Origin: an uncultured Planctomycetaceae bacterium
Lineage (GTDB): Bacteria > Planctomycetota > Phycisphaerae > SM23-33
Assembly: GCA_964557575.1 (NCBI GenBank)
Contig: CAZLBC010000012.1
Coordinates: forward strand, 17,400-81,399
Reading direction: 5' to 3'
DNA: 64,000 nt
Below, piece by piece: positions 14,547-64,000 of the stretch (its first letter is position 1; each line of letters begins with the position of its first letter). Both the position numbers and the translations under genes were made by a program. The notes under the pieces are model-generated. The model saw only the letters and a program-made list of their open reading frames with translations. It did not search any database and had not been told where the DNA came from.

Positions 14547-14747
14547 GTTCTACTCCGGACATAGTTATACGGTACGGCGGACGGATGCAGCCGGTTCCTT
14601 GCCCGTCATAACGATACGGAATAAGATATATGTATTACAGGCGAACGCCGATGGCAATGAGAATCATGTTATCTTTCCCACGCACGGTCGTACCGTCGCG
14701 GACCCGGCAGGCGCGGACCGGCTCCGCCGCGGCCGCAAAGCGACGTC

Positions 14748-16235: not shown

Positions 16236-16241
16236 CGCGGT

Positions 16242-16571
16242 TCAGGATGCCTGCGCGGCCTCTTCTATAGCCGCAACCAGGTCGTCTTCCTTCTGCACTC
16301 CGACGAACTGCTTCACCGGGTCCCCGTCCTTGAAGATGAAAATGGCGGGAATCGCGGTTATGCCTAACTGGCTGGCCACCGTGCGGGCTTCGTCAATATT
16401 CAACTTGGCTATGGTCGCCTTGTCGCCGACCTTTTGAGCCACACTGTCGATAACGGGTGCTATCATCTTGCACGGGCCGCACCAGGGGGCCCAGAAATCG
16501 ACGAGGGTAACGCCTTCGGCTATTTCCGCGTCGAAGTTTTCTGCGGTGAGTTCAACAGCGTTTTCAGACAT
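16242..16571 (-). CDS. trxA: Thioredoxin
   Basis: The 109-aa product carries the WCGPC active site. The ATG at 16571 has GGAGG 5 nt upstream, and the longer track ORF is a 5' over-extension. Confidence 0.9.
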   Translation of the reverse strand: MSENAVELTAENFDAEIAEGVTLVDFWAPWCGPCKMIAPVIDSVAQKVGDKATIAKLNIDEARTVASQLGITAIPAIFIFKDGDPVKQFVGVQKEDDLVAAIEEAAQAS

Positions 16572-16691
16572 AACAACCTCCATGCCGGGACTATAAATAA
16601 CAGTCATGCGGTGAATAACAGACAATGGCAAGTATACCGTGATGCCGGCCAATAGCAACAACGGATTCCATCGGGTACTCATCTCAACGGA

Positions 16692-49122: not shown

Positions 49123-51036
49123 TCAATCTAAATACCAGTACCGTTCAACCGCCCGGTCGACTACCCTCTTGATGAAATCACCCCCGACTTTGACCGTGGC
49201 CCCCTCGTATATATTTGAAAAGTATTTATCCCGGAGCAAACCGTACTGTTCTTTTCTCAGTTTCTCCGCAATATCATCCTGCGCCTCAACAAACCCGCGG
49301 GATTCCCCCTCCTTGACGTCGAGCGCCTTGACGATAAAAAAGCCGCCGACATCACGGATAATCCCGCTTGTTTCGCCTTCCGCGAGTTCGAACGCCATCG
49401 CTTCGACCTTCTCCTCACGCTTATTGCCCCGTCCCATCAGACCCCATACACCCCCGTTCGATCGCATCGGCCCGGTCGAAAACTCTTCCGCCACCGCCGA
49501 AAAGCTGTTGCCGTTCTGCAGTGCGGCCAGCGCCTTTTCGATATGATTCCGGGCGGCCTTTTCCGCCGCCGCTCGCTCTATCTCGCTCGGCGTATCCGAA
49601 GGTTTCTCCGCATGTTCGTAAAAGGATTTCAACGGCTCAAACCGATTGAAATGGGCGGCTATGATCTGCATTTTCACTTTCTTCTCGGAAGAGAACTCGT
49701 CCTTGTGCTTGCGGTAGTAGTTCCAGAGTGTTCTCCTGTTGACGACGATCCGGGGATAGAATTTCTGCTGGAGATAGGTACTCACAATATAATCCCGACT
49801 CAGACCTCTCTCCATTGCTTCCAGGGCAATCCCCTCCCGCCGGCACTTATCTTCCAGCGCCTCCCGGCTGCCCCCCGCCTCGGCGATCATGCGCCGTATC
49901 TCTTTATCCACATCGGCCTGAATGAAATCTATGACCTGTTCCTTAAGTCTCCTTTCGGCCTCGGCAAAAACGAGGGACTGCTGGATCTGGTAGTGTATCT
50001 CGCTGCCGACGATTTCCAGGGCCTTTTTTCGAAACTCGAGCTGGGGAAGATCCCTGGGCAGTTCCAGGAATCTTTCATGCATGCCGTCGATAAGCTGATC
50101 GGCGTTCACAAAACGGTCATTAACCTGTACGGCCCCGCCCGAAACAATGACTTCCTCCCCCATGGCCAGGCCGGCGGGCTTCGATCGTCCGGCCGAAACC
50201 GGCACCGGCATCGGTCCCTCGTCCTTCGCCAGCGGGCCCACCGGGGGAACGTCACCGCCGGTATTCAAAGCGACTTCCCCGCGGCCGTCCTCCATCGCAT
50301 CAGGTAATTCCTTCTCGTCGACTCCCGCATCTTCATCAACGCCGTCGGTCACGGGCTTCGTATCGGTATTGCTTTTTTCCGATACCGTCTCCCACTGTCC
50401 CATCTGCGCAATCTTTTTCTGAATCACCTTGTACGGCACCCCCCTGCCGCCGCCGGAAACCCGCGCGATGGCTTCGCGCAGATCGCTTCTCCTCGATGCG
50501 TGTTCTCCGCCCGCATCAACTCCCCTCGACGTTACACGTTCCGACGTGGTCGGTCGAACGCGATGATTCTCGTCATCAGGACTCGTCGTCGGTTTTTTGA
50601 CTGATCCGTTACCGCTTTCCGGCGCGCGCGCCTCAGGTTCGACGCCATCTACAGTATTGTTCGGGGCCGCGTTCTCCACCGTTTTCCCGCCACCGTTCAG
50701 GGGGGGGAGTTGGAGGTTTTCCGACCAGTCATCGTTCTGTGCACCCGTTGCTACCGAGCGATTGTCCGGCTCGCCCGCCGCGCCGGTTTTTTCGCCGTCT
50801 GCTCCCGCAGCCTGTTTCATCAGGTCTTCCAGGGCGAGGGGATCGGCGTCTCCCGCGTCTTGGGCAGGCGGCTCCTCGAGCGGCGGGGGAGGCAGTTCGC
50901 CCGACTCGCTTGAAGGAATCACCGGTTCAACCTCCTCGCTGGACATCCAGTCGGGCATATTCTCCGTACCGCACCCGAATAGCGGAACGGCAAGCAACAC
51001 CGTCATAATAGAGTGAATTATACGGTTCTCAGTCAT
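49123..51036 (-). CDS. Peptidyl-prolyl cis-trans isomerase lipoprotein, SurA/PpiD-like chaperone plus parvulin domain, with a ~300-aa acidic disordered N-terminal region
   Basis: Lipobox LFGCG. The C-terminal SurA-N-like chaperone region and parvulin rotamase domain (GGVWGLMGRG, FFIVKALDV) sit behind a long D/E/P/G-rich low-complexity segment. Confidence 0.75.
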   Translation of the reverse strand: MTENRIIHSIMTVLLAVPLFGCGTENMPDWMSSEEVEPVIPSSESGELPPPPLEEPPAQDAGDADPLALEDLMKQAAGADGEKTGAAGEPDNRSVATGAQNDDWSENLQLPPLNGGGKTVENAAPNNTVDGVEPEARAPESGNGSVKKPTTSPDDENHRVRPTTSERVTSRGVDAGGEHASRRSDLREAIARVSGGGRGVPYKVIQKKIAQMGQWETVSEKSNTDTKPVTDGVDEDAGVDEKELPDAMEDGRGEVALNTGGDVPPVGPLAKDEGPMPVPVSAGRSKPAGLAMGEEVIVSGGAVQVNDRFVNADQLIDGMHERFLELPRDLPQLEFRKKALEIVGSEIHYQIQQSLVFAEAERRLKEQVIDFIQADVDKEIRRMIAEAGGSREALEDKCRREGIALEAMERGLSRDYIVSTYLQQKFYPRIVVNRRTLWNYYRKHKDEFSSEKKVKMQIIAAHFNRFEPLKSFYEHAEKPSDTPSEIERAAAEKAARNHIEKALAALQNGNSFSAVAEEFSTGPMRSNGGVWGLMGRGNKREEKVEAMAFELAEGETSGIIRDVGGFFIVKALDVKEGESRGFVEAQDDIAEKLRKEQYGLLRDKYFSNIYEGATVKVGGDFIKRVVDRAVERYWYLD

Positions 51037-51367: not shown

Positions 51368-54300
51368 TCAGGACTTCTTTCTCAGTGTCCCGAGCAGCAA
51401 TTCCAGCAGTACCGCCGGCCGGCGCTGTTCTTCCGGCGGCCGCCAGTGAATCGTTCCTTCGCCCGGGCACCGGAGACTTCCGTCGAGAACCGCGAATACG
51501 TCTCGCAGCCTTCCGGCATCCCGTGTTGAAAAGACGATATCGGGATCATTGAAAACCGCGCTCTCGACCTCGATTTCCGACAGGCGCACCCGCAGTTCGG
51601 CGGTTTCCAGCAGCCGGGACACCCGCGCGGGAAGCGATCCGCAGGCATCGGCGATATCCTCTCTGAGGTCCGCAACCTCACCAGGCGTACAGCACGCTCC
51701 TATCCGGCGGTAATACTCCATCCGCTGCCGGTCCGAGGAAATATAATCGACGGGTATGTACGCCTCGAGACCGAGCTCCAGGTGAACGCGCACCCGCCGC
51801 GGCGGTTCTTCACCCCTCAGGCGGCACGATGCCTCCTCCAGGAGGCTGCAGTACATCTCATAGCCGACCGCCGCAATATGCCCGCTCTGCTGGGGACCGA
51901 GGATATTGCCGGCCCCCCGTATTTCCAGGTCGCGCATGGCGATGCGAAACCCGGCTCCCAGCTCGGAACACTCCTCTATGGCCTTGAGCCTCCTGGCCGC
52001 CGCCATCGAAAGACCGCGGGTTTTCGGCAGAAGCAGGTAACAGTAGGCGCGGTGCTTGTATCGCCCTATCCGTCCCCGCAGCTGGTGGAGTTCGGCGAGA
52101 CCGAAGCGATCGGCGTCCCGGACGATCAACGTATTCGCGGCGGGGATATCGAGCCCCGACTCGATGATGGTCGTACACACCAGCACGTCGATGGTTCCCG
52201 CGACAAACCGTATCATGACATCCTCGAGCGCCGCCCTGGGCATGCGCCCGTGGGCAACGGCCACGGTCCCGCCACCGGCCAATCGCCTGACACGGTCGGC
52301 GACCTGCTGTATGCCCATGACCCGGTTATGCAGGAAAAACACCTGTCCGCCGCGGTTGCGTTCGCCGGCGATTGCGGTGCGAATGAGGCCGTCGTCTTCC
52401 GGGACAACCTCGGTTCGGATCGCCTGCCGGTCTATCGGGGGCGTCTGCAGGGCGGTGATGTCGCGGAGGCCGAGCATCGCCATGTGCAGCGTCCGCGGGA
52501 TCGGCGTCGCCGTGAGCGTCATCACGTCGACGCTCGCGCGAAGGGTCTTGAGGTACTCCTTCGCCGCAACCCCGAATCGCTGCTCCTCGTCGATAACGAC
52601 AAGCCCGAGATCCGGGAACCTCACGTCGCCGCTCAGGAGCCGGTGGGTGCCGATAACAACGTCGACGACCCCCGTGGCCAGCCGGTCGATCACCGCTTTC
52701 TGTTGTGCCGGTGTCCGCAAACGACTCAGCATTTCCACCCGGACGGGGTAATCGGCAAAACGCTCGGAAAAGGTACGGCAGTGCTGCTCGGCCAGGAGCG
52801 TAGTCGGCACGAGAACGGCCGTCTGCGCCCCTTCTTCCGCGGCACTCATGGCCGCCCGCATCGCCAGTTCCGTCTTCCCGTACCCCACGTCGCCGCAGAC
52901 GAGCCGGTCCATGGGTCGCGCCGCCGCCATGTCACGGGCTATCTGACCGACCGCCTCGATCTGGTCGGGTGTCTCGGTGTACGGAAATTCGTCCGCGAAC
53001 TGCCGCTGTATCTCCGTGTCGGCGGGAAAGGCCCTGCCCGGCGATGCCCGCCGCGCCGCCTGCACCCTGAGGAGTTCGGCGGCCATGTCCTCGACCGCCT
53101 CGCCGACCTTCCGGCGGGTCCGTGCCCAGTGCCTGCCGCCCAGGGCACTCAGCGAAGGACGGCGGCCACTCGGCCCGACATACTTCTGCACCAGGCCGAT
53201 GCGGGCGGCAGGAACGTGGAGCACCGCGTTGTTTCGGAATCGCAGCTTCAGGTACTCCTCGGTCACCCCGTCGCGATCGAGCCGGCCGAGCCCCTCGTAT
53301 TTCGCGATGCCGTGCGATACATGGACGACATAATCCCCCTTATCGAGATCGACGAATGACCTTACGGGACGGCCCGGACGAATGCGTTGCGCGCGGCGAA
53401 ACCGCGAATAGCGCTTGTATATTTCGTGATGTCCGACCGCCGCTGCCTGTATACCCGGCCAGTGAAATCCCTTCGACAGGTGACCCCGCACCAGCCGGGC
53501 ACCGGCCGCGAGGGCGGGATACTTCTGATGTGTCAGTTGCCGGAAACGCTCTCGCTCGGCCTCGTTCGCGCAGGCGATCCAGACGGCGCACCGGGAGGCG
53601 AGGTGTTCCAGTTCACCCAGCGCCCGCTCCGTTTCGAGCGACAGAAACTCGAGCGAACGGATACCCAGGTCAATCTCGTCATCACTTTGTTCGGAAAAGT
53701 AGTGCATGTCCGCGCGGCGGAATCGCTGCATGGCGGAAAAGAGATCCGCCGCGTCGAGCAGGCCGGCGGGCGCATCGCGTTTCTCCGCGTTGAAGGACGC
53801 GCGGTTGTATATCTCGGCCGCCAGCTCCCGCAGTTGTTCGGTATCGAGCGCGCAGATCATCGCGCGGTCGGGAAGATAATCCAGGAGGGTTCCGCCCGCC
53901 GCACCGCCGGCCGACAGCGAGGGTATCACGCACGATGAGATCTCCCCGGTGCTCCGCTGGGTGTCCGGGTCGAGAAGCCGCATCGATTCGATCGTATCAC
54001 CGAAGTACTCGATCCGCACGGCGCCGCTGCGGACCGGAAAGAACACGTCCACGATGCCGCCCCGGCGGGCGTATTCGCCGGGGACGTCGACCTGCTCGAC
54101 GGCATCGTAATCGTGGTCGACGAGCCACGCGGCGAGCTGCTCGGGGGGATACTCCCCGCCCTGCTCGAGCCGGCAACACCGGGAGGCCAGCGCGCCGGGC
54201 GCGGGAACGGGCTGGAGCAGCGCCACCACGGACGCAATGATGCAGTCGGTCCGTTGTCCTGCGCGCGCTGTCGACTTCCGGTCGTCATCCGCCAGCAGGT

Positions 54301-54622
54301 TCAGGATCTGCAGCCGCCGGGCGGTGATTTCGGGGTTCGGCCGGTCGACGCCCGGCCGTGATTCCCACGCCGGAAACTGCCGGACAGCGATGTATCCCGG
54401 CTCCGTCGCATCGAGCAGCGCGATATCCTCGGCGGCCTCGTCTGAATCGTCGTCATGCCGCACGATATAAAGCACCGGCCGGCCGGTGAGCCGCCCCAGG
54501 GCCGCCGCGACAAAGGCCGGGGCGGCGCCCCACAACCCGCCGATCGCCACGCGGCTGCGCGGGCCGGAGAGGCGATCGCCGGCTTCGCGTAACAGTTTGT
54601 AATTAATGATCTTATCGAACAT
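51368..54622 (-). CDS. mfd: Transcription-repair coupling factor
   Basis: About 1085 aa with UvrB-homology N-domain, RNAP-interacting domain, DEAD/DEAH translocase (GDVGYGKTE, DEEQRFG) and TRG motif. The ATG at 54622 has a GGAAGG RBS. Confidence 0.95.
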   Translation of the reverse strand: MFDKIINYKLLREAGDRLSGPRSRVAIGGLWGAAPAFVAAALGRLTGRPVLYIVRHDDDSDEAAEDIALLDATEPGYIAVRQFPAWESRPGVDRPNPEITARRLQILNLLADDDRKSTARAGQRTDCIIASVVALLQPVPAPGALASRCCRLEQGGEYPPEQLAAWLVDHDYDAVEQVDVPGEYARRGGIVDVFFPVRSGAVRIEYFGDTIESMRLLDPDTQRSTGEISSCVIPSLSAGGAAGGTLLDYLPDRAMICALDTEQLRELAAEIYNRASFNAEKRDAPAGLLDAADLFSAMQRFRRADMHYFSEQSDDEIDLGIRSLEFLSLETERALGELEHLASRCAVWIACANEAERERFRQLTHQKYPALAAGARLVRGHLSKGFHWPGIQAAAVGHHEIYKRYSRFRRAQRIRPGRPVRSFVDLDKGDYVVHVSHGIAKYEGLGRLDRDGVTEEYLKLRFRNNAVLHVPAARIGLVQKYVGPSGRRPSLSALGGRHWARTRRKVGEAVEDMAAELLRVQAARRASPGRAFPADTEIQRQFADEFPYTETPDQIEAVGQIARDMAAARPMDRLVCGDVGYGKTELAMRAAMSAAEEGAQTAVLVPTTLLAEQHCRTFSERFADYPVRVEMLSRLRTPAQQKAVIDRLATGVVDVVIGTHRLLSGDVRFPDLGLVVIDEEQRFGVAAKEYLKTLRASVDVMTLTATPIPRTLHMAMLGLRDITALQTPPIDRQAIRTEVVPEDDGLIRTAIAGERNRGGQVFFLHNRVMGIQQVADRVRRLAGGGTVAVAHGRMPRAALEDVMIRFVAGTIDVLVCTTIIESGLDIPAANTLIVRDADRFGLAELHQLRGRIGRYKHRAYCYLLLPKTRGLSMAAARRLKAIEECSELGAGFRIAMRDLEIRGAGNILGPQQSGHIAAVGYEMYCSLLEEASCRLRGEEPPRRVRVHLELGLEAYIPVDYISSDRQRMEYYRRIGACCTPGEVADLREDIADACGSLPARVSRLLETAELRVRLSEIEVESAVFNDPDIVFSTRDAGRLRDVFAVLDGSLRCPGEGTIHWRPPEEQRRPAVLLELLLGTLRKKS

Positions 54623-54722
54623 GCCTTCCGACCCGCTCACCGCGTGTGCGCATGAAAAAACCCGGGATCGGGCCCATACCCGGTCCCGTGCCGGTGCGAC
54701 CGAAGAAATTACTGTTCCCGCC

Positions 54723-55499
54723 CTACTGCGGGAAGGCCAGCCACTCGTATATCAGGAACTGCATGCGGCCGATCAGCAGCGAGAGGCGCGCCATGACGGT
54801 GTAACCGAACGACGCGCCGAACGAAATCATCAGCACCAAAATGCCGAATTTCGACACGCCGCCGCCGAAACCCTTGTGCTCCAGGGAGAAGAAAAAGTAC
54901 CACAGGACCGCCACGGTACTCGCCAGGACGAACACCGCGCAGAAAATATCGAAATAGTACACCCAGCCCGTGCCGTTATTCTCCAGCAGCGGCCTGACGG
55001 AGGCCTCGAGCTGCTTGAGTACAAAGCTGTCGGTCACGAACACGATGCCCACGCCCGCGCCCCAGCCGACCATAAGGGCGTATGAATAGCGGCTCATCCA
55101 CGACCGTTTTTTCGACAGCCGCATCAGGATCAGGATGCCGAGAATCACCGGCCACGTACGCAGCATCAGGGCCTCCATGAGCGCGTCGTGCGTCGGTGCG
55201 TTGAAGAACTTGTCGTACACCTCGGGCCGGAGGTACGTCTCCCACATGATAATGATCATGTACCCCGTCGTGACGCCGACGTAGAGATTCTCGGCGATCT
55301 TGAACAGGGGATTGTCGCGGTAGAGGAAGCTGTACATCGCCAGCGTCAGTCCGGCGGCGATGATGATCCCGATCGTCTCGCGGGAAAATACACGGTGAGA
55401 CAGCAGGCTGAGCACGCCAAACGCGACGATGATACAGAACAGCGCGATCAACTCGATCATCCGCCGGCGTGAACTGATTGTCTCCTGTGCTGTCGCCAT
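54723..55499 (-). CDS. Polytopic membrane protein, last gene of an uncharacterised 8-gene operon
   Basis: 258 aa with six or more hydrophobic helices and no recognised family. Its start is 4 nt downstream of the preceding gene's stop. Confidence 0.55.
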   Translation of the reverse strand: MATAQETISSRRRMIELIALFCIIVAFGVLSLLSHRVFSRETIGIIIAAGLTLAMYSFLYRDNPLFKIAENLYVGVTTGYMIIIMWETYLRPEVYDKFFNAPTHDALMEALMLRTWPVILGILILMRLSKKRSWMSRYSYALMVGWGAGVGIVFVTDSFVLKQLEASVRPLLENNGTGWVYYFDIFCAVFVLASTVAVLWYFFFSLEHKGFGGGVSKFGILVLMISFGASFGYTVMARLSLLIGRMQFLIYEWLAFPQ

Positions 55500-55503
55500 A
55501 GGC

Positions 55504-56343
55504 TTATTTCTTTCTCTTCCCGGTGAACCGCGCGAGCATGAACCGCAGGTTGGCGACGATTATGAGCCCGATAATCAGCAGGTGCGCCATCGACTGGGCG
55601 GTCATGCCCCGGGTGGCGCTGTCGCTCTTGTCGATAAGCTGCTCGTAATCCGCCGCGCCGCGCAGGCCGCCGAGGCATCCCTTGATCTGCTTGGCGTCCA
55701 TCAACGGGTACAGGTCGGGCGTCATGACGGCCGTCGTACCGGTGATGAAGGGGATATCGTGCCGGTCGGTACCGTAGGCGATCCATTCCTCGTAGGTAAT
55801 GCCGGCCTCGATACCGACGAAGAGCGGAAAATCGCCCAGTTTGTCTATCCCATCGAGGGCGGCCATGCCGTCGGTTGGTTCGCCGTAAAAATCCTTGTCG
55901 AACGCCCGCTTCAGGTCTTCACCGATGTTCAATATGAGGTTCACGCGGCCCGGCCGGTAGCCGAGGAAGACATAATCTTCTCCCGATTTCATGCCGTATT
56001 CCCCGGCGACCTGCTCGCTCATATCCCGGGCCAGGCCGATCCCCCGCGGCCAGTGCGTCATGACGACCGGCACGAGTCCCCGCTCGAAGCAGTGGCGGAG
56101 GACGGCAACGCTCATCGGCCGCAGTTCGGGTTCCGCGGCGGGATCGAAATCGAATGCCACCAGGACGCGCGTTCCCTCATCGAGTCGCTCAATCTCCTCG
56201 TAAAACATCACCGCCTTCGCGGAGGACTTGAACGGCAGCACGAATTTCAGGAGAAACGGGGTGATCACCGCGACGGCGACCAGGTTGAATATGATCCACT
56301 TGGTGATCTCGACGCGCCGCAACTCGTGCTGGGCGATAGCCAT
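55504..56343 (-). CDS. Bitopic membrane protein (N- and C-terminal TM helices flanking a ~200-aa soluble domain), uncharacterised operon component
   Basis: The true start MAIAQHELRRVEITKWIIFNLVAVAV at 56343 forms an ATGA overlap with the upstream stop. The track ORF is 5'-extended into junk. Confidence 0.55.
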   Translation of the reverse strand: MAIAQHELRRVEITKWIIFNLVAVAVITPFLLKFVLPFKSSAKAVMFYEEIERLDEGTRVLVAFDFDPAAEPELRPMSVAVLRHCFERGLVPVVMTHWPRGIGLARDMSEQVAGEYGMKSGEDYVFLGYRPGRVNLILNIGEDLKRAFDKDFYGEPTDGMAALDGIDKLGDFPLFVGIEAGITYEEWIAYGTDRHDIPFITGTTAVMTPDLYPLMDAKQIKGCLGGLRGAADYEQLIDKSDSATRGMTAQSMAHLLIIGLIIVANLRFMLARFTGKRKK

Positions 56344-57017
56344 CAGTCTCCCCCTCCCATGTAGGATCGCTCTATCCCGAATATGATCCGCAGGTACTGC
56401 GAGATGGCCCCCAGGCTGACGCCGAGCAGAATGCCCCGCTTGGCCGCCATGTTCGGATAATCCATCATCCACTCGGCCGTCCTGGCAAACAACTGGGAAT
56501 CCCCGAACCACCTGCCGGCCACTTCACTGATAGGTACGCGGCCGAACATGACGATGATAGCGGAGATCAACAGCAGCGCCGCGCCGAGATTCCTCGCCCG
56601 AAACGTCCTGAACGCGGCGCTCGCCATGAAAAAGGCGAGAATCGAGAAGATGGTGGCGCCGCACGGCACCTGGATATTCATATAGCACCACTGGAACCAC
56701 GATTCACCTTCCCTCGGCATGGGAACCAGCGGCCCGAGGCCCTCGTTCCAGATCCCGAGGACCATCATTCCCACGATGCCGATGAAGACGAAAATACTGT
56801 AGGCCCAGCCGGGCTGGCGGCGCTTGATACGCATGTAGTGCATGTGCGTCAGGCTCCACAGCCCCAGGAGCATGGCGAAACCGAAAATGATGTACATCCA
56901 CGTCGTAATCTCCCCCCGAAACGTCGACGCGAACGGATGCGGGACGAAAAGATGCACGAACCCGACCACGCCTATGGTAAAGGCAATCAGAAGCGGCAGT
57001 GTCCGTTTATACCACAT
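56343..57017 (-). CDS. Polytopic membrane protein (224 aa), uncharacterised operon component
   Basis: Five or six TM helices. It does not match the NqrD/E or RnfA/E signatures that were checked. Confidence 0.55.
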   Translation of the reverse strand: MWYKRTLPLLIAFTIGVVGFVHLFVPHPFASTFRGEITTWMYIIFGFAMLLGLWSLTHMHYMRIKRRQPGWAYSIFVFIGIVGMMVLGIWNEGLGPLVPMPREGESWFQWCYMNIQVPCGATIFSILAFFMASAAFRTFRARNLGAALLLISAIIVMFGRVPISEVAGRWFGDSQLFARTAEWMMDYPNMAAKRGILLGVSLGAISQYLRIIFGIERSYMGGGD

Positions 57018-57035
57018 GGTTTCTTCGCGCGACTC

Positions 57036-58514
57036 CTACGAAAATGACGTTACCATCCACTTGATCCAGCCGAGGTGCCATCCCAGTACCGTTCCGACCG
57101 TCATCACTATCGCGCCGATCAGCATGGTCAGCATGAGCAACGCCTTGCCGATGTCCTGGCCGCGAAGACTGCCGAGCAGTTTCGGCTCCCGGGACAGGTA
57201 CGCCGAGGCGGCGTAGAGTTCCTCGCCGATAAGCGTGTAATCGCACGTGGTGATAAAAAACGGCAGTTGGGTAAAGGCGTCCGTACCGGCCACCTGGATC
57301 GCGCCGGTCGAGGCGCCCGTCTCGGAGAGCAGCAGCGACTCGGCGTAGAAATGCCCCAGCATGAAAACAGCGGCGGGCTGCTCGCGCACCATCCTGCCGG
57401 CGACCGCGGCGACGTAGCTGAACTGGTCGAACGCCGACAGCGTGACGTCGTCCGGATCGTACGCGTCGGGCCGGCCGGCCTCGGTATACGCCTGCTGCAC
57501 CACCTCCTGGGTGACCGCCGTGACAACCGGATCCATGTTCAGTACCTGAACCCGCGTGTCGTAGTCGGCGGCCCGGCGGGCGACGCGCGAGAGGATGTTC
57601 ATCGAGGCGATCGTGGCGCGGTGCTCGAGAATTTCGATCCCGGGGATGTAAAAAACACCGCGTCCCATTTCCGTTGCGCGGCCGATGGCCTCCTCGACGG
57701 CCTCCAGGCCCGGTATCCGCCTGATGTAGAGGTTCGGATTGCGGCGGGCGATCTGGATAAAGGCCATGACCGCGGCGCTGATCAGGACGGCGAAAAACAG
57801 GTTATTGAGCTTGAACCACTTGAAGTAGTTGACCCTCGCGCCCGCGCCGGCGAGAACGAGGGGCGCCCCGTCCCGTTTCACGTACACCGTATCGTCATCC
57901 GACGCCACGGCAAGTCGGAAATACAACGGTGATGTATTGAGATCCCGTTCTATTTCCTTGTGCATTTCCTTTTTTTTCTTTTCCAGCCACCCCTTCAATG
58001 TCTTGGACATATCCTCTTCGGCCCGTTGCCGTTCGCCGTCCGTCAGGAACCGCGCCATCGCCTCCTGCATGGTCGGTTCCGGCGGGATAAAGAGTTCCGC
58101 CGGCTTGATTTCGGCGACGTAAAAACACTCGTTCTCCTTGTAGAAACCGTAGTACTTCATGTTTGCGGACTTAAGCGACCCCGGGACCGGTTTTACCTCG
58201 ACGGTCTTGAAATTGTCCGCGTCGAAGTCTTCCGGCGCCCGCGCCACTTCGAGCACGTACCGAAACCCGGCCGGCGCGTCTTCTGCCGGGACCGCCTCGA
58301 CCGTGTCTTCTTTTTTCCCCGCCGTCTTCACCGTCGCCGCCCATTCCACGGTAATCGTGTCGCCCCGATCACTGGGCCGGTCGTAGGCCCTGAACGAATC
58401 CGGATCGGGAAGGAGGTCCGCGAGGTCGGCCCCGCGGGACATACACACCGGGCCGAGCAGCAAAAGGATCGCCGCAAGAACCAAACCGGTTGTTCCATGC
58501 CTTCCCGGCCTCAT
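57036..58514 (-). CDS. Membrane protein with signal peptide, ~270-aa periplasmic domain, TM, ~200-aa cytoplasmic domain and a C-terminal TM; uncharacterised operon component
   Basis: The true start MRPGRHGTTGLVLAAILLLLGPVC at 58514 forms an ATGA overlap with the upstream stop. The 157-codon Arg/Gly-rich extension in the track ORF is an antisense-type artefact. Confidence 0.55.
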   Translation of the reverse strand: MRPGRHGTTGLVLAAILLLLGPVCMSRGADLADLLPDPDSFRAYDRPSDRGDTITVEWAATVKTAGKKEDTVEAVPAEDAPAGFRYVLEVARAPEDFDADNFKTVEVKPVPGSLKSANMKYYGFYKENECFYVAEIKPAELFIPPEPTMQEAMARFLTDGERQRAEEDMSKTLKGWLEKKKKEMHKEIERDLNTSPLYFRLAVASDDDTVYVKRDGAPLVLAGAGARVNYFKWFKLNNLFFAVLISAAVMAFIQIARRNPNLYIRRIPGLEAVEEAIGRATEMGRGVFYIPGIEILEHRATIASMNILSRVARRAADYDTRVQVLNMDPVVTAVTQEVVQQAYTEAGRPDAYDPDDVTLSAFDQFSYVAAVAGRMVREQPAAVFMLGHFYAESLLLSETGASTGAIQVAGTDAFTQLPFFITTCDYTLIGEELYAASAYLSREPKLLGSLRGQDIGKALLMLTMLIGAIVMTVGTVLGWHLGWIKWMVTSFS

Positions 58515-59635
58515 GACTCTATTGCCTCCAGGTTCGCGCGGGGGATCGTGACCATCTCCCCGCCGGGCAGTGCCAGTGTCGCCACGCGGACCTTCGCCTC
58601 GCTCTCGACCGCCACGGCCTCCGGCGGAAGGGACGCAACCGCACCGATGCGGCCGAAACCCGGTTCGCGAATGATGCGGACGCGACTGCCCACGGTCAAG
58701 CCGTCCGCCGCGTTCTTCTCGCCGCCGCCCGAGCCGCCGTCGTCCTCCGCCGGCATGACGATCTCCGGCCTGAGGACGCCGGCACGGATCTGGGTGGCGC
58801 CGTTGGCCGACGCGACCGTTCCCGCCCGGGACGCCAGGAGCCGGTAGGTCGCTTCCGCCATGGCGATGTGTCCGAACCCCTCGGTGACGATCAGTATCGG
58901 GCTGATCTTTTCGTGACCGGTTATCGCCACGCCCAGGTCGTATCCGAGCAGTTCCCGCAGGTCGCTGTCGTTGAACCCCCCGCATATGATAGCGGCGACG
59001 CCCGCTTCAGAGGCCCGCCGATATACATCGCCCGTCACGAGAGAGCCGGCGACAGCGATTTTTCCGTCAAGGTCCCCGGTAATATCATCCGTCGTCACGA
59101 CCGCATCGGGGCCGTCGGCGACGACGGCGATCTCGCCGTTCACCTCCCCGCCGACGCCCAGTATGCCCTGGATAAAGGCGCCGCGGGTCTCCACCACAAC
59201 TCCCTCGTTCGGTATCACCTTGATGACGACCCCGTCCATGTAGGCCGTCGTCTGGACCGGCCGGGGCGGCGTGCGCAGAATAACCTGGCCGGTCACCGCG
59301 GATACCGTCTCGATCGTCCCCGCTATCGGCGAGGCGACGGTGGTCCGGAACCACCGGATAAGCGGGCGGGTCTCGGCGATGACCTCCCCTTCGTCGACGG
59401 CGTCGCCTTCCTTCTTCAGCAGGAGGCGCTTGATATCGGAGGCCTGGACGCCGAGCCGGTTGACCAGGTTCACCGTCGCCACGTCGCCGGGCAGCTTCGC
59501 ACGGGCGACGATATCACCGGCCGACACCCGCGTTCCCTCTTCGACGAGGACGTCACCGGCGATGGGCAGCCGCCGCTGCTTCCGTATCACGGTGTTCTCG
59601 GTCACCTTCAGTCCCGGCGTATAGGCGTGTGCCAT
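58511..59635 (-). CDS. Soluble protein with an N-terminal biotinyl/lipoyl-like barrel-sandwich-hybrid domain resembling the NqrA/RnfC N-terminus; uncharacterised operon component
   Basis: MAHAYTPGLKV...RRLPIAGDVLVEEGTRVSAGDIV...TTVASPIAGTIETV parallels NqrA GLDLPIAG...SPVSGKVVEI. There is no biotin-attachment Lys motif and no Fe-S or flavin motifs. ATGA overlap at both ends. Confidence 0.55.
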   Translation of the reverse strand: MAHAYTPGLKVTENTVIRKQRRLPIAGDVLVEEGTRVSAGDIVARAKLPGDVATVNLVNRLGVQASDIKRLLLKKEGDAVDEGEVIAETRPLIRWFRTTVASPIAGTIETVSAVTGQVILRTPPRPVQTTAYMDGVVIKVIPNEGVVVETRGAFIQGILGVGGEVNGEIAVVADGPDAVVTTDDITGDLDGKIAVAGSLVTGDVYRRASEAGVAAIICGGFNDSDLRELLGYDLGVAITGHEKISPILIVTEGFGHIAMAEATYRLLASRAGTVASANGATQIRAGVLRPEIVMPAEDDGGSGGGEKNAADGLTVGSRVRIIREPGFGRIGAVASLPPEAVAVESEAKVRVATLALPGGEMVTIPRANLEAIES

Positions 59636-61482
59636 CAGGCATTCCCCCCCGCGGCCCGCGGATAGGCGTCCAGGGCGGCGGTCCATTCCGCGACGATTGC
59701 GCTCCTGTTTTCCGCGGGAATATCGATCGGCCGCCCGCGGCCGTCGAGCACCAGTCCCACGACGCCGCCGTGTACCACCGCCGTAATCTCCCGGCCACGG
59801 CCTCCTCCCAGGTCTATACCGCGGCCGGGACGGAGCACGATGTCGGCCGCCTGCCCCGGGGACAGCGTCTCCAGGACGATCCCGCCGCAATCGACGCTGC
59901 CGCCGCAAACCGCGCCGTCGATCCGCAGTTCGTAGTCGAAACAGAGCCGCCCGGGCTTCCCGGCGTTCAGCGGGGACACGCAGGTCCCCAGGTAGATCAG
60001 GCAGTCGCGCTCGAACACCTGCGTCGCCGCCGCCTCGTTGACTTCCGCCAGGACACCGAGGTGCGGCATCATGAAGATGCTGTCGACGCAGATCCGGGTG
60101 ATCCCCTCCGGCTGGAAGGCGTCAACGAGCATCATCATCGCCTGGCTCCGGCGGGGGGCGTGCGACAAGACGCCGCCGCTGCCCACGAGCATGTCCAGCC
60201 GGACCATCTCTATAAGGGTTTCGCCGCTCTCGGATTCGTCAAAGGCCTCGGACACCGTCCGGACCCGCTGGACGCCCTTGAGGCCAACGGCGAGCTGCTT
60301 GTGCTGCACAAATGCCAGGCGGAGGGCCTCCCGCGCGATCGCCTGTTCGATCTTCAGTTCTTCCAGCAGTTGGGGGATCGTCGTCGGCCGGATCATCTTG
60401 TTCTTGATCCGGTTCCTGAGGCCGCCTTCGTCTATGTCGAACGGCACCCAGCGGAGAATGTTTTCGAGACCGGCCTCGGCCAGGACGTTGGAGATCGAGT
60501 AGCTCATGCCCAGGTTTGCGCTGACCGAGCGGTTGAACACGCGTTCGGCGGGTATCTCGGGGTTATCTTCTTCCCCTTCTTTCGCGGCGAAATCGGAAAA
60601 GACGTCCGTTGTCGCGCCCCCGATATCGACACCCACGATGTTCAGGTCCCGGGTGCGGGCGATCCGCCGAATGATATTTCCCACGGCGGCGGGCGTCGGC
60701 ATGATCGGTGACCCCACCCATTCCATCAGCGTCGGGTAGCCGGGCGCCTGGGCCATCACGTGCTTGAGAAACAGGTCGTGAATCTCTTCCCGGGCGGGGC
60801 CGAGGTTTTCCCGTTCGAGGATGGGCCGGATATTGTCGGTGATGTGCAGTTCCGCCGTGTCGCCGAGCGCCTTTTTGACTTCGTCGCGAGCCTCGACGTT
60901 GCCGGCGTACACGACGGGCACCGTGAAGGAACTGCCGAGACGGGGCCGAGGATTGGCCGCGGCGAGGAACTCCGCGAGTTCCACCACGTGCCTGACCGTG
61001 CCGCCGTCGGTGCCCCCCGAGAGGAGAACCATGTCAGGGCGGAGCGTGCGGATCTGCTCGATCTTCTCGTGGGGGGCCCGCTTGTCGTTGCTGGCCAGCA
61101 CGTCCATCACGATGGCGCCGGCGCCCAGCGCGGCGCGCTGCGCGCTTTCAGCGGTCATCGTCGTCACCACCCCCGCCACCATCATCTGGAGTCCGCCGCC
61201 GGCGCTGCTGGTGGAGATGTAGATATCGACCCCCGCCGCGTCCCGCGCGGGGGTGATGATCCGCTCGCCATCGAGAATCCGCCGGCCGGAGAGTTCCTCC
61301 AGTTCCGTCACGGCGTTCAACACCCCCCGGGTGACGTCCTCGAACGGCGCTTCGACCGTCGTCGGGGCCTCGCCGCGAAACGTCTGCCGGTATCCCTCGT
61401 CTTTCTTCTCGATCAGAATGGCCTTGGTCGTCGTCGATCCGCAATCGGTCGCCACGATGACCTTCAGGTCCGCCGGGTTCAT
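59635..61482 (-). CDS. ASKHA-fold ATPase, GlmL/MutL-like (hydantoinase-A-like); uncharacterised operon component
   Basis: Two phosphate-binding motifs, ATDCGSTTTKAIL and IVGVDIGGATTDVFS, plus LATSSAGGG-like and AALGAGA segments, as in the glutamate-mutase MutL/EutA-like reactivase-type ASKHA family. 615 aa with GGAGG RBS. Confidence 0.65.
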   Translation of the reverse strand: MNPADLKVIVATDCGSTTTKAILIEKKDEGYRQTFRGEAPTTVEAPFEDVTRGVLNAVTELEELSGRRILDGERIITPARDAAGVDIYISTSSAGGGLQMMVAGVVTTMTAESAQRAALGAGAIVMDVLASNDKRAPHEKIEQIRTLRPDMVLLSGGTDGGTVRHVVELAEFLAAANPRPRLGSSFTVPVVYAGNVEARDEVKKALGDTAELHITDNIRPILERENLGPAREEIHDLFLKHVMAQAPGYPTLMEWVGSPIMPTPAAVGNIIRRIARTRDLNIVGVDIGGATTDVFSDFAAKEGEEDNPEIPAERVFNRSVSANLGMSYSISNVLAEAGLENILRWVPFDIDEGGLRNRIKNKMIRPTTIPQLLEELKIEQAIAREALRLAFVQHKQLAVGLKGVQRVRTVSEAFDESESGETLIEMVRLDMLVGSGGVLSHAPRRSQAMMMLVDAFQPEGITRICVDSIFMMPHLGVLAEVNEAAATQVFERDCLIYLGTCVSPLNAGKPGRLCFDYELRIDGAVCGGSVDCGGIVLETLSPGQAADIVLRPGRGIDLGGGRGREITAVVHGGVVGLVLDGRGRPIDIPAENRSAIVAEWTAALDAYPRAAGGNA

Positions 61483-61808
61483 TCGGCCGCCTCCCCGGTC
61501 GCGCCGTCGACCCCGGCGGTTTCAATGGCGTCTATCAGCGCGTCGATTCCTTCCCGCCTTTCGAGAATCTGCGCGACGCGATCGTATTCATCGGGGTTGA
61601 ATATCACATCGGCGAACCGCCGAAAGAACACCATCGCCTGACTGCCGACGTAATTCAGGGGCTTCGCGGAGTGCAGGAACAGGACCGCGGGCAGGCGCAG
61701 TCTGCGCTTGACGACCCATGAGGCAAGGCGCGTGAGCAACTGGCGGTCCTCCGCGGTGAGGGGGCCATGCGGGCTTTCCAGCGAAAACGCGTGGCGCAGC
61801 CCGTCCAT
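61479..61808 (-). CDS. Hypothetical 109-aa protein, second gene of the operon
   Basis: MDGLRHAFSLESPHGPLTAEDRQLLTRLASWVV.... Its stop overlaps the ATPase start (ATGA), and it lies 4 nt after the upstream gene's stop. Confidence 0.45.
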   Translation of the reverse strand: MDGLRHAFSLESPHGPLTAEDRQLLTRLASWVVKRRLRLPAVLFLHSAKPLNYVGSQAMVFFRRFADVIFNPDEYDRVAQILERREGIDALIDAIETAGVDGATGEAAE

Positions 61809-61812
61809 GAAT

Positions 61813-62364
61813 CTACGAAATCTGGGACTTGTTTCTGACAAAACGCAGTACCTTTTCACCGTTTCCGTTCGAAAACCTCAGAAACACGCCGCGAAAGGGA
61901 TCGAGGCGCGACGGCCGCTCAAACGGCGAGAGAAAAACACCCCGCGGCCCTTCGCAGACACGCTTGACCCGGTCCCATCCGACGGTACGGGACTGTCCGA
62001 GAAAGCGGACGGTAATGCCCCTCCCGTCGAGGGTGTACACCGTCGCGATACAGTACCGGCCGAGCGACACGGCCAGCAGGGCGGCCGCCAGCAGCGCGTA
62101 GCCCGCGCCGCCGAATACCGTACCGACCGCCGCGCTGGCCGCGAGAAAAGCGGCTATAAACAGAATCGATCGCGGGAAATCATCGGCCAGCGGGCGGGAA
62201 CGCCAGAGCAATCGCTCCTGAAATGCTCCGGTTCCGTCTCTTCCGGATCCATCGGACATGCGGAGATAATACCAGCGAAATTCCCCCTTGGCAAACCAAA
62301 ACCATCGCGATCGCCGCACCGACTCACTGTCAAAAATAACATGCCGACCTGTCGTTTTCTCCAT
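61813..62364 (-). CDS. Membrane protein with two TM helices and a C-terminal bPH-like soluble domain, first gene of the operon
   Basis: SILFIAAFLAASAAVGTVFGGAGYALLAAALLAVSL followed by GRGITVRFLGQSR...GVFLRFSNGNGEKVLRFV. The start codon choice (62364 versus internal 62259) is uncertain. Confidence 0.4.
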   Translation of the reverse strand: MEKTTGRHVIFDSESVRRSRWFWFAKGEFRWYYLRMSDGSGRDGTGAFQERLLWRSRPLADDFPRSILFIAAFLAASAAVGTVFGGAGYALLAAALLAVSLGRYCIATVYTLDGRGITVRFLGQSRTVGWDRVKRVCEGPRGVFLSPFERPSRLDPFRGVFLRFSNGNGEKVLRFVRNKSQIS

Positions 62365-62431: not shown

Positions 62432-64000
62432 ATGTCGAATAAACGCAATCACACGGCGGTGTACGGCGCGAAGGCGTGCCTGATGCTGATACTCTTCGCA
62501 CCGGCACTCCCCTGCCGAGCCCACCCGGCAATCACGGCGGGCCTGGCGGTCTCGCCGTACGACCGCCAGGTCTCGGCGCAACTGAAGCAACTGTCCGCCG
62601 ATGATCCGGACGATCGCGCGGCCGCGGCGGAGTCCCTCGGCTACCTGCGGGCGTACCGGGCCGCCGATGCCATCGCGGCAGTGCTGCAGAATGAATCGCC
62701 GGCCGTCCGCCGGGAAGCCGCCATGTCCCTCGGCTGGTGCGGGGAAAGAAAACACGTTTCGGCGCTGCTGGCGATGCTCGACGACCCGGAGTGGACCGTG
62801 GCCCAGGCGGCGTGGGCGGCGCTGACCAATATCACCGGCATGGAATTCCCCTTCGACGCGCTGGATCGCGGCACCCGCCAAAAACAGGCGGAAAAATGGC
62901 GCACCTGGTGGGCGTCGGTCCCCGCCGACCGGCCGCCGGCGGCGGTCCTGGCACTCCTGTCGGGCGCGAGAAAACCGACGGGCGTACTGACGGCCCGGTC
63001 GGCCGCGGTCACCAGTGTCTACAAGGGATCGGCGGAAATACTGATCGACGGTGCCACCGGCGGCGCATTCTGGCAGACGAAGAACGTCGGCTTTCCGCAG
63101 TCCTGCACGATCGACATGGGCCGGACCGTCGCATTCCGCTGCGTGGTCGTGCACCAGCACCGGATCGAGGCGATGCACATGACCGATTTCGCCCTCCTCG
63201 TCGGCGACGACGGCGAAACGTTCAAGGAACTGTGCCGAAAGAAGGGCCCGACGCCCGCGCAACTGGTCATCCCGCTTCCGCCCACCCGGGCGCGGTATAT
63301 CCGCATCACCGCGTACGCGACGGGAAACAGCACCTACCCCACCACCTTTCACGAAGTCGCGGTGCGGGAAAAACCCCCGCCGGCCGAGTCAACCGGCAGG
63401 GCCGATCCGGAGGGGGATACGAACTACCGGATCGAACGGGGCCTGCGGGCGCTGGGTGCGCTGGGGGGGGAGGGGGCCGCGGAGGACGTCCGGGAGATCA
63501 TCCGCCCCTGGGCGGGACGGACGACCGGCAGGGACGCCGAGAAACGGCTGGTCCAGGCCGGCATCCGCGCCCTCGGCCGCCTCGGGGGGCCGGGTGCGCT
63601 GGAACTGCTGACCTCTTTTCTCGACAATCCTCACTGGTCCGTGTACGCCGCCGACGCCATGGGGGATCTCGGCGACCCGGCCGCGGCGGCAATCCTCATC
63701 GGTGCGTACCCGGCGTACGCCAAGACGCTGAAACGGGGAAACCCGCAGAAGGCGCCGCGCTACGACCGGCCGGGGCTGTCGCCCATCGACCGCATGTACG
63801 CCACGCCGTACGCCATCTGCCACGCCCTCTGCCGGATTTCCCTCGACCGGCCGGGGATAACCGAAAAGCTGCGCACCATCGCGCCCCTGATCGTCGCCAA
63901 CGTCCCCGGGGACTACGACGGGGCGATGCTCTACGAACCGGAGGCGTGCCGCCTGGCATCCGCGTACCTCCTCGAAAAGGCGGGGCTGCGGCAGGCGGTC
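62432..64000 (+). CDS. Secreted HEAT-repeat (PBS-lyase-like) plus F5/8-type-C (discoidin)-like domain protein, 3' end outside the window
   Basis: ATG at 62432 with GGGAG RBS and signal peptide MSNKRNHTAVYGAKACLMLILFAPALPCRA. HEAT repeats (ESLGYLRAYRAADAIAAVL, AAMSLGWCGERKHVSALLAML), a discoidin-like middle segment and further HEAT repeats run open to 64000. It is not listed in the ORF track because there is no stop in the window. Confidence 0.7.
   Translation, partial: MSNKRNHTAVYGAKACLMLILFAPALPCRAHPAITAGLAVSPYDRQVSAQLKQLSADDPDDRAAAAESLGYLRAYRAADAIAAVLQNESPAVRREAAMSLGWCGERKHVSALLAMLDDPEWTVAQAAWAALTNITGMEFPFDALDRGTRQKQAEKWRTWWASVPADRPPAAVLALLSGARKPTGVLTARSAAVTSVYKGSAEILIDGATGGAFWQTKNVGFPQSCTIDMGRTVAFRCVVVHQHRIEAMHMTDFALLVGDDGETFKELCRKKGPTPAQLVIPLPPTRARYIRITAYATGNSTYPTTFHEVAVREKPPPAESTGRADPEGDTNYRIERGLRALGALGGEGAAEDVREIIRPWAGRTTGRDAEKRLVQAGIRALGRLGGPGALELLTSFLDNPHWSVYAADAMGDLGDPAAAAILIGAYPAYAKTLKRGNPQKAPRYDRPGLSPIDRMYATPYAICHALCRISLDRPGITEKLRTIAPLIVANVPGDYDGAMLYEPEACRLASAYLLEKAGLRQAV

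Follow-up and report, generated by a model that had tools for sequence, protein, structure and literature searches.

Analysis of the window, a 64,000-nucleotide stretch of a contig from an uncultured Planctomycetaceae bacterium, revealed eight co-oriented minus-strand ORFs (designated g1 to g8) that occupy 54723-62364, with neighbouring genes overlapping or sitting at most 18 nt apart. The first, g1 (61813-62364; 183 aa as the longest ORF), encodes a small membrane protein and is followed by g2 (61479-61808; 109 aa), g3 (59635-61482; 615 aa), assigned by its sequence to the ASKHA-fold ATPases of the MutL/GlmL family, and g4 (58511-59635; 374 aa), encoding a soluble three-domain putative adaptor. 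Downstream lie g5 (57036-58514; 492 aa), a DUF6754 protein, g6 (56343-57017; 224 aa), a polytopic membrane protein, g7 (55504-56343; 279 aa), a bitopic-hairpin protein, and g8 (54723-55499), a second polytopic membrane protein, of 258 aa when read from the start at 55499. The ORF analysis agrees with the initial annotation, which had placed eight genes, all on the minus strand, across this interval. Of the four 4-nt ATGA overlaps described there, those at g2/g3 and g4/g5 were observed, but the junctions g3/g4 and g6/g7 are 1-nt overlaps (TGATG); the two 4-nt gaps were located at g1/g2 and g7/g8. The g5/g6 gap is 18 nt, with AGGAG upstream. The eight genes form a real and tightly packed operon.

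A promoter-like sequence (TTGCCA-17-TATTAT with a TG extension; 62266-62294, minus strand) lies directly upstream of Met36 of g1. It is a match to the sigma-70-like consensus only, the count of such sites in the region being equal to the shuffled expectation. Homologues of g1 are ~135-166 aa long, and conservation in their alignment starts at LLWRSRPL, from ~residue 52. Based on these lengths, the onset of conservation and the promoter-like match, the true start of g1 is probably Met36 at 62259, giving a protein of 148 aa. Searches of the window and of 21 loci turned up no riboswitch, and no extra neighbour gene was conserved across all loci.

The predicted ATPase and its partner proteins

The g3 protein matched the Pfam MutL family (PF13941) with an E-value of 2.3e-131 and 439 bits against a cut-off of 27, over profile positions 1-450. 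Its phosphate-1 (DCGSTTTK, residues 13-20), phosphate-2 (VDIGGATTD, 285-293) and adenosine (GSGG, 434-437) motifs were identified, and D13-K20, D286-D293 and G434-G437 do not vary among 21 homologues from different phyla, bearing out the two ASKHA motifs read earlier from this protein. By sequence, g3 is an ASKHA-fold ATPase of the MutL/GlmL family. It is predicted to be an active ATPase, since all of its nucleotide-binding motifs are invariant and its identity across phyla is 58-79%. A PDB sequence search with g3 returned no relative.

GlmL/MutL and Or-4, the accessory or reactivating proteins of the B12 enzymes glutamate mutase and ornithine aminomutase, share PF13941 end to end and the ASKHA motifs with g3. 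Unlike them, g3 carries a ~120-aa C-terminal extension, is far more conserved across phyla, and falls below the cut-off of every curated NCBIfam model: GlmL (NF040745; 239.3 against 475), Or-4 (NF040744; 219.4 against 600) and the TIGR01319 subfamily (180.7 against 204.05). GlmL proper is encoded between or beside glmS/glmE (mutS/mutE), whereas the genes flanking g3, in the window as at almost every one of 55 loci, are g2 and g4, usually together with the membrane genes. Among the conserved g3 neighbours in these 55 loci no recurring mutase-like family was found; in line with an earlier observation that no B12 enzyme is nearby, no B12 mutase neighbour was detected. Relatives of g3 appear in NCBI records as 'glutamate mutase L', as 'methylaspartate mutase' or as 'reactivating factor for D-ornithine aminomutase'; the first two names are probably over-annotations, and such mutase names could mislead metabolic reconstructions.

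The g4 protein comprises three domains, at ~10-130 a barrel-sandwich hybrid, at ~135-295 a predicted swivelling beta/beta/alpha-like domain and at ~315-374 one that is KOW/SH3-like, all of types that act elsewhere as mobile or docking elements. The initial annotation had described it by an NqrA/RnfC-N-like barrel-sandwich domain, which is present, but as a sole description this omits the two further domains. A role as biotinyl/lipoyl carrier was rejected: the modifiable hairpin-tip lysine (E-A-M-K-M or E-T-D-K-A) is absent, its position is taken by a nearly invariant proline (AET-x-P), and nearby K/R residues are not conserved, the window protein reading IRWFRT. A PEP-utilising phosphohistidine domain is not supported, as g4 lacks the phospho-acceptor His (G-G-x-T-S-H) and similarity to PF00391 (PEP-utilizers), which gave 0 matches in 24 g4 members. 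Residues 135-300 contain no invariant His, the only one in unfused homologues being His3; conserved g4 residues include D223, D225 and T281. A comparison by hhalign of the g4 profile with an approximate sequence of the E. coli Enzyme I His-domain found nothing. In Foldseek searches the middle domain matched PA and RraA domains, which share the fold, equally well, indicating that the likeness is to a fold and not to a phosphocarrier family. No Pfam or NCBIfam cut-off was reached by g4.

Adjacency of g3 and g4 in 51 of 55 loci, together with two independent natural g3-g4 fusion proteins, indicates that the two act as a unit. The N-terminal peptide of g4, MAHAYTPGL, is invariant among unfused homologues in the cross-phylum alignment. 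In both fusions His3 and Tyr5 are replaced and the subsequent PGL is kept, consistent with a tether that becomes superfluous once the two proteins are covalently joined. The third soluble component, g2, contains a conserved amphipathic/hydrophobic hairpin (PA..FLES..PLNFLGSQ..FL.PF) and is always encoded directly upstream of g3.

Membrane subunits and modularity of the cassette

The g5 protein consists of a signal/anchor segment, a periplasmic FN3-like module with helices, a TM segment, a conserved cytoplasmic alpha/beta domain and a last TM segment. Residues 228-475 matched the full model of Pfam DUF6754 (PF20539; E=4.9e-112, 373.7 bits, cut-off 27), a catalogued family with no assigned function that was not mentioned in the literature searched. 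The periplasmic part is modular and variable in length: in homologues it is extended by a charged helical insert of ~300 aa or by another FN3-like unit, and some homologues, as short as ~293 aa, apparently lack the extension, although these are ORF calls with uncertain starts. In the predicted topology the most conserved g5 domain faces the cytoplasm, where g3 and g4 are; its most conserved stretch, residues ~370-450, was modelled at low confidence.

The remaining membrane subunits reached no Pfam or NCBIfam cut-off. The g6 protein has ~6 TM segments in an N-in/C-in arrangement and conserved FSILAFF.ASAA.R.FRAR and ERSY.GG motifs. In g7, a TM segment, an alpha/beta domain of ~210 aa with a predicted periplasmic location and a second TM segment place both termini in the cytoplasm; a colinear resemblance to the TM-domain-TM unit of g5 was non-significant. 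The g8 protein has 6-7 TM segments, conserved YSFLY.DNP.FK.AE..YVG and FGA.FGYTVM.R.SLL.GR motifs and an ambiguous start, at 55499 or, in the public record, at 55460 (245 aa). PDB profile searches with the g5 C-terminal domain, g6, g7 and g8 were empty, and no subunit of the cassette has a solved relative by sequence. Two further TM segments, in a two-helix hairpin (family-averaged positions 66-102), are found in g1, followed by a C-terminal bacterial-PH-like domain with weak bPH_6/bPH_7 matches in 3 of 18 members. Like g2, g1 reached no Pfam or NCBIfam cut-off. It occurs at 23 loci, in Planctomycetota, Latescibacterota, Gemmatimonadota and Sumerlaeota, and may be a lineage-restricted accessory subunit.

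Relatives of g5 occur in at least 598 species genomes, and 81 loci were fetched for neighbourhood comparison. The genes g3-g8 are present in 52 of these, mostly in the same order and with differing flanks, spanning ~13 phylum-level labels that include Planctomycetota, Nitrospirota, Latescibacterota and Gemmatimonadota. The median intergenic gaps across loci are -17 to +17 nt, with values of 67 nt for g3/g4 and -4 nt for g2/g3. Recurrence of this order and tight spacing in dozens of genomes from different phyla is more than chance. Cassette-bearing lineages include nitrite oxidisers, anammox bacteria, Methylomirabilis and many uncultured phyla; among the 80 retrieved loci the cassette was seen in no classical model organism, which may explain why it stayed unstudied.

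The cassette comprises two modules, soluble g2-g3-g4 and membrane-bound g5-g8, that can be unlinked or multiplied. Behind a single g3-g4 pair, the [g5 g6 g7 g8] unit is repeated three times in tandem in one locus (L081) and twice in three others (L055, L073 and L004). In Brocadiaceae, g2 accompanies g3-g4 and the membrane genes are elsewhere. The tandem repeats and the unlinking in Brocadiaceae establish the membrane module as a separate evolutionary unit. Some loci (WOR-3, Poribacteria and others) carry g5-g8 with no g3 or g4 within 10 kb. In two Latescibacterota genomes (L015 and L024), Opp ABC-importer genes are inserted between g3 and g4; in L015 the cassette was verified to be interleaved with a complete Opp operon on one strand, followed by a peptidase gene. 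This setting is a transport- or uptake-themed neighbourhood.

A possible ATP-driven membrane machine

HMM, PDB-sequence and fold searches placed no subunit in a characterised complex, in keeping with the earlier view that the cassette fits none. The membrane subunits had likewise been described as devoid of the NqrB-E/RnfA,D,E signatures checked and of ABC, secretin or flavin/Fe-S motifs, and Pfam, NCBIfam and PADLOC searches detected no Rnf/Nqr, ABC or other known family in them. None of the eight proteins had a Pfam or NCBIfam match to ABC, ECF, PTS or other known transporter or secretion families, and neither HMM nor fold searches linked any subunit to a known transporter, channel or secretion component. 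An ABC reading is unsupported, no ABC family being present, as is a defence-system reading, with zero matches of the eight proteins to PADLOC anti-phage models at E<=0.1. The suggestion that the operon encodes a co-translated multi-subunit assembly gains support from the cross-phylum co-localisation and the lack of a known-complex match; co-localisation in other genomes, which had been proposed as a check, is strong across phyla.

Since the gene order is conserved across phyla and no characterised complex was matched, the cassette probably encodes an undescribed ATP-driven membrane machine. Our preferred reading, which we hold at somewhat less than even confidence, is a two-part translocating or energy-transducing machine of a kind not yet described, with primary-active transport or translocation as its output. 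The physical complex that we infer would have a cytoplasmic part, g2-g3-g4, in which the g3 ATPase has g4 as its obligate partner, and an inner-membrane part, g5-g6-g7-g8, with g6 and g8 as polytopic core. The g5 protein would present its DUF6754 domain to the cytoplasm and its FN3-like module and variable helical stalk to the periplasm, where the alpha/beta domain of g7 is also predicted to lie. ATP binding and hydrolysis by g3 would move the g4 swivel domain, and g4 would dock onto the cytoplasmic domain of g5. The conformational change would then travel through the membrane module as far as its periplasmic face and drive substrate translocation, and a single energising module would be shared by between one and three interchangeable membrane modules. 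The Opp-linked loci speak for this reading; the loci with g5-g8 but no nearby g3 or g4, and the lack of likeness of any subunit to known transporters, speak against it. ECF transporters and ATPase-sharing ABC importers offer an organisational analogy only, in that one ATPase unit is combined with one to three tandem membrane modules; the cassette differs in its ATPase fold and in lacking ABC or ECF families. We know of no ASKHA-powered transporter.

Conservation of g3, of the motifs in g4 and of the cytoplasmic domain of g5 is extreme, as would be expected of a docking surface but equally of an enzyme's active site, and conservation at such enzyme-like levels in g5 and g4 is one argument for an alternative that we consider unlikely, namely that g3-g4 is an ATP-dependent maintenance chaperone for a membrane-embedded enzyme formed by g5-g8, acting for example in damaged-cofactor exchange or in resetting an inactivated state. 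The MutL/GlmL family is characterised as accessory or reactivating factors of B12 mutases. DdrA/GdrA, the reactivase alpha subunits of diol and glycerol dehydratase, and EutA are ASKHA-fold ATPases, and DdrA also has a swivelling beta/beta/alpha domain (SCOP fold c.8), so that g3 and g4 together, sometimes fused, would supply the same fold pair. However, neither g3 nor g4 has a detectable sequence relationship to DdrA/GdrA/EutA, the swivel domain lies on a separate protein between barrel-sandwich and KOW domains, and the partner is a membrane module instead of a soluble B12 enzyme. Pfam and NCBIfam searches recognised no cofactor motif in g5-g8, whether for B12, Fe-S, flavin or otherwise, and the fold search detected no candidate catalytic family; one chaperone for three tandem client modules would be unusual, and periplasmic FN3/stalk domains are unexpected for a cytoplasm-facing enzyme. 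A reading of g3 as an ordinary glutamate-mutase (methylaspartate mutase) accessory gene, with the other genes as unrelated neighbours, draws on the NCBI mutase names and the Pfam family name; it is effectively refuted by context, given the sub-threshold NCBIfam scores, the nearly constant g2 and g4 neighbours with no recurring mutase-like gene, and the g3-g4 fusions.

Other readings change what the machine would do. Energy from g3-g4 might be carried by way of g5 and g7 as far as the cell wall or the outer membrane, where the machine would maintain, tether or assemble the envelope and not transport solutes. The FN3-like module and helices of g5, lengthened in homologues, are as expected of a periplasm-spanning stalk, the cassette phyla are generally regarded as diderm, and the window neighbours include a PpiD/SurA-like PPIase and an LPS heptosyltransferase. 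These neighbours are not conserved at other loci, no peptidoglycan-, lipoprotein- or outer-membrane-binding domain was detected in the cassette, the ~293-aa g5 homologues apparently do without the extension, and diversification of substrates accounts more readily for a membrane module present in three tandem copies; we regard an envelope role as improbable. The initial annotation had named assembly, transport and cytoskeletal functions for an ATP-driven envelope machine; such a machine is plausible, but the cytoskeletal option found no specific support. PTS-like group translocation, with g3 as a kinase that phosphorylates the g4 swivel domain, from which the phosphoryl group would pass to the membrane module or substrate, appeals to the carboxylate and sugar kinases among ASKHA proteins. 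It is very unlikely: His3 is replaced in both fusions and the middle domain has no invariant His, the Enzyme I and PEP-utilizer comparisons were negative, PA and RraA domains fit as well, and EIIC/EIID families are absent. A divergent Rnf/Nqr ion-translocating oxidoreductase, in which g4 would take the place of NqrA/RnfC, is effectively refuted, as the likeness spans only ~90-130 residues of a widespread fold, in the N-terminal domain of g4. The remaining domains of NqrA/RnfC are absent, no membrane subunit matches the Pfam/NCBIfam models for NqrB-F or RnfA,B,D,E,G, and an ATPase stands in place of redox cofactor motifs and Fe-S, flavin or NADH-binding families.

Known ATP-driven membrane machines use few motors, such as ABC, P-type, rotary and AAA+/secretion ATPases. 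Returning to the two-part transporter or translocase, we propose, still more tentatively, that it represents a new class of primary-active membrane machine, in which a GlmL-like ASKHA ATPase would energise a four-subunit, multipliable membrane module through a swivel adaptor. If true, these would be joined by a new principle of energisation, in which an ASKHA-fold ATPase is coupled to a membrane module of its own. The high conservation of the cassette and its occurrence in environmentally important lineages suggest that it probably serves a basic cellular function that is invisible in current annotation.

An operon conserved across phyla

Window positions 54723-62364 are filled by eight ORFs on the minus strand, numbered in transcription order: g1 (61813-62364, 183 aa), g2 (61479-61808, 109 aa), g3 (59635-61482, 615 aa), g4 (58511-59635, 374 aa), g5 (57036-58514, 492 aa), g6 (56343-57017, 224 aa), g7 (55504-56343, 279 aa) and g8 (54723-55499, 258 aa). 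The initial annotation had described a translationally coupled eight-gene operon, which is real. Its account of the junctions was slightly off: true ATGA overlaps occur only at g2/g3 and g4/g5, while those it had reported at g3/g4 and g6/g7 are 1-nt TGATG overlaps. Gaps of 4 nt separate g1 from g2 and g7 from g8, and g5 and g6 are 18 nt apart, with AGGAG before. A promoter-like sequence (TTGCCA-17-TATTAT, 62294-62266) falls within annotated g1 and ends 7 nt before Met36; the g1 family is conserved from residue ~52 onwards, and its members mostly have 135-166 aa. The true start is therefore probably Met36 (62259), making the annotation 35 codons too long (62259-62364), and a transcript begun at this site would be leaderless or nearly so. 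The start of g8 is also uncertain, with a public gene call placing it 39 nt further in.

Downstream of the cassette lies mfd, encoding the transcription-repair coupling factor (51368-54640, minus strand); other neighbours encode a PpiD/SurA-like PPIase (49123-51036, minus strand) and a family-9 heptosyltransferase (46635-47852, plus strand). A divergent gene (62433-64000, plus strand), recognised by eye in the DNA and 463 aa long in the public L001 call, starts ~70 nt upstream of g1. None of these genes is kept beside the cassette in other loci.

In a protein collection, g5 and g4 each fall into more than 8000 clusters at 90% identity, with named members nearly all "hypothetical" or "DUF6754 domain-containing", and the g4 profile matched 3160 50%-identity representatives (902 with E ≤ 1e-30). 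When one genome per species was scanned, at least 598 had a g5 relative. The best 80 loci carry labels of Planctomycetota (including Phycisphaerae and anammox lineages), Latescibacterota, Gemmatimonadota, Nitrospirota (including many Nitrospira), Methylomirabilis, WOR-3, Armatimonadota, Sumerlaeota, Poribacteria, Elusimicrobia, Ignavibacteria, Myxococcales and Thermodesulfobacteriota. By tblastn and family HMMs, 52 of 81 loci have the complete g3-g8 set, for the most part in the window order; g2 usually comes before it, as does g1 in some phyla. The flanks vary between loci and the spacing within the cassette is tight everywhere, and that g1-g8 form a real operon is firmly established.

No additional neighbour is universal across the loci; the clusters that recur are either specific to a lineage or represent another copy of the membrane module. 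A search for Rfam elements that might hint at a ligand, riboswitches included, found none close to the cassette, either in the window or in 21 loci. Four Acido-Lenti-1 RNA motifs (RF01687) in alternating orientation span ~2.2 kb of a Brocadiaceae MAG (L016:17352-19579), ~3.6 kb downstream of g8. On a WOR-3 chromosome, an isolated fragment that matches bacterial 16S rRNA at positions 39-400 only (L078:3641-4009, minus strand) lies beside acyl-CoA dehydrogenase genes; it may stem from misassembly or be an rRNA remnant.

The g3 ATPase and its g4 partner

The g3 protein matches the full Pfam MutL model (PF13941, E = 2.3e-131), and scores under the curated cut-off of all three NCBIfam models (GlmL, 239/475; Or-4, 219/600; TIGR01319, 181/204). 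Neither the two phosphate motifs nor the GSGG motif varies among 21 sequences from different phyla, and identity across phyla is exceptionally high (58-79%). This firmly places g3 in a distinct GlmL-like clade as an intact ASKHA ATPase, inside a known Pfam family but outside its characterised subfamilies. Sequence and profile searches of the PDB detected no solved structure for g3. Its relatives carry NCBI names such as "methylaspartate mutase", "glutamate mutase L" and "reactivating factor for D-ornithine aminomutase"; given the sub-threshold scores and the absence of a mutase neighbour, these are probably over-annotations, likely systematic. On the same evidence a role as a B12 mutase accessory was rejected, and the glutamate-mutase reading is effectively excluded. 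A Kuenenia gene listed as "mutL" between hypothetical genes in a transcriptome table (KSMBR1_1057) was dropped, being labelled mismatch-repair MutL (COG class L) with no tie to g3.

The g4 protein meets no Pfam or NCBIfam cut-off. An AF2 model built from a 44-sequence alignment (mean pLDDT 85.5) has a KOW/SH3-like C-terminal domain, as in Spt5, NusG, eL27, PsaE and NdhS. Scanning of 24 family members singly gave matches to Biotin_lipoyl (19/24), RnfC_N (18/24), NQRA_N (5/24) and KOW (2/24), which supports the first and last domains from sequence. A conserved proline replaces the biotinyl/lipoyl carrier lysine, so a carrier function was rejected, and an LplA/B-like gene upstream in Latescibacterota was taken as coincidental. 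The barrel-sandwich fold is the sole feature shared with Rnf/Nqr, and that reading is effectively excluded. A phosphohistidine carrier was likewise rejected: the cross-phylum alignment contains no invariant histidine beyond His3 of the N-terminal peptide MAHAYTPGL, PF00391 gave no match, and hhalign against the E. coli Enzyme I histidine domain was negative.

In the same alignment, MAHAYTPGL is invariant among unfused homologues. In both natural g3-g4 fusions (P0389, 995 aa; P0436, 1003 aa), His3 and Tyr5 are replaced and the subsequent PGL is retained, a pattern that fits a role of the peptide as a tether to g3. A ~450-aa g4 variant (P0414) lacks this N-terminus and has an apparently duplicated barrel-sandwich domain. 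It is firmly shown that g4, with its three domains, is a partner dedicated to the g3 ATPase, evolving together with it and at times fused to it.

Membrane subunits and modular organization

Residues 228-475 of g5 match DUF6754 (E = 4.9e-112). The protein starts with a signal or anchor segment, followed in the periplasm by an FN3-like module and helices; a TM helix then leads to a cytoplasmic alpha/beta domain, and another TM helix closes the chain. The alpha/beta domain includes extended invariant stretches, e.g. CDYTLIGEELYAASAYL, and its structural neighbours are only generic. In long homologues (~780-850 aa), the periplasmic part gains either another FN3-like unit or a charged helical insert of ~300 aa. 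Both g6 (~6 TM) and g8 (6-7 TM) are polytopic, while g7 consists of a ~210-aa alpha/beta domain, predicted to be periplasmic, between two TM helices with predicted cytoplasmic termini. The remaining small proteins are g1, a TM hairpin with a weakly bPH-like C-domain, and g2, with a conserved hydrophobic hairpin.

No Pfam, NCBIfam, PADLOC or PDB relative was found for g1, g2, g6, g7 or g8; these proteins and g4 reached no cut-off in any library searched, and the only family entry for g5 is a DUF. A defence system was rejected, as PADLOC matches were absent. Sequence and profile searches of the PDB with g3, g4, g5, the cytoplasmic part of g5, g6, g7 and g8 gave nothing meaningful. All-against-all hhalign of the subunits detected no significant paralogy; the best pair was g5 and g7 (probability 2%, P = 0.024), both colinear TM-domain-TM units, with soluble domains predicted by the positive-inside rule on opposite sides of the membrane. 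We keep their paralogy as a tentative idea.

Tandem membrane units, unlinked loci and the g3-g4 fusions divide the cassette into two modules. A single g3-g4 is followed by three tandem copies of g5-g6-g7-g8 in an Ignavibacteria locus (L081:1-13100), and by two copies at L055:9590-16904, L073:9470-16791 and L004:9770-17497. In Brocadiaceae, g2-g3-g4 (L084/L085) and g5-g8 (L011, L016) occupy separate loci, and several WOR-3, Poribacteria and other loci carry g5-g8 with no g3 or g4 within 10 kb. Carriers of g5-g8 include the WOR-3 chromosome CP070705.1 and the Poribacteria chromosome OY762266.1. That g5-g8 constitute a four-gene membrane module evolving as a unit is firmly shown. Two g7 copies lie side by side in L008 and L009. 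At L042:10001-10816 and L038:10001-10837, a g5 homologue occurs with no detectable g6-g8; L042 has 10 kb of downstream sequence, which leaves two readings, an orphan DUF6754 protein or a more divergent module.

Candidate functions

The proposal that the operon encodes an ATP-driven envelope machine is supported and sharpened by these results at the level of inferred function. We infer that the g1-g8 proteins would form one complex, in which the DUF6754 domain of g5, on the cytoplasmic side, would be where g3-g4 dock, and ATP-driven movement would pass across the membrane. Translocation or transport is our tentative preference, given one energiser serving one to three membrane modules, the polytopic subunits, the predicted periplasmic alpha/beta domain and the transport-themed context in Latescibacterota. 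In L015 from that phylum, 13-19279 encodes on one strand rnc, lplA/B-like, g1-g2-g3, oppA-oppB-oppC, g4-g8, oppD-oppF and a large MA-clan peptidase/PD40 protein, so that the cassette is interleaved with the full gene set of an Opp-type peptide ABC importer. L024 likewise has a large gap between g3 and g4, and an OppA-like gene lies in it; other Latescibacterota and Gemmatimonadota loci carry Opp-type ATPase genes downstream of g8. L008, L009, L027 and L040 share only some flanking genes with L015. Of the contexts seen, this one is the most suggestive, and in these lineages it hints at a link with uptake. L008 also carries an extra membrane-protein gene, DUF445-like by eye, between g3 and g4 (~7400-8660).

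Diol-dehydratase reactivase pairs an ASKHA protein with a swivel domain, a combination that g3 and g4 may also form, and this pairing, with the family of g3, would suit a reactivase-like chaperone for a membrane enzyme, which we consider unlikely. The FN3 module and variable stalk of g5 would suit an envelope-spanning mechanical or assembly device, to which we give slightly less credence still, and a PTS-like phosphorelay, from which the expected histidine is missing, is very improbable.

Open-access text yielded no known system of like composition, no mention of DUF6754 or PF13941, and nothing relevant for GlmL with glutamate mutase. As none was found there, we regard the cassette as a probably new system, widespread, highly conserved and entirely uncharacterised, with an unusual architecture and a putative function in translocation or transport.
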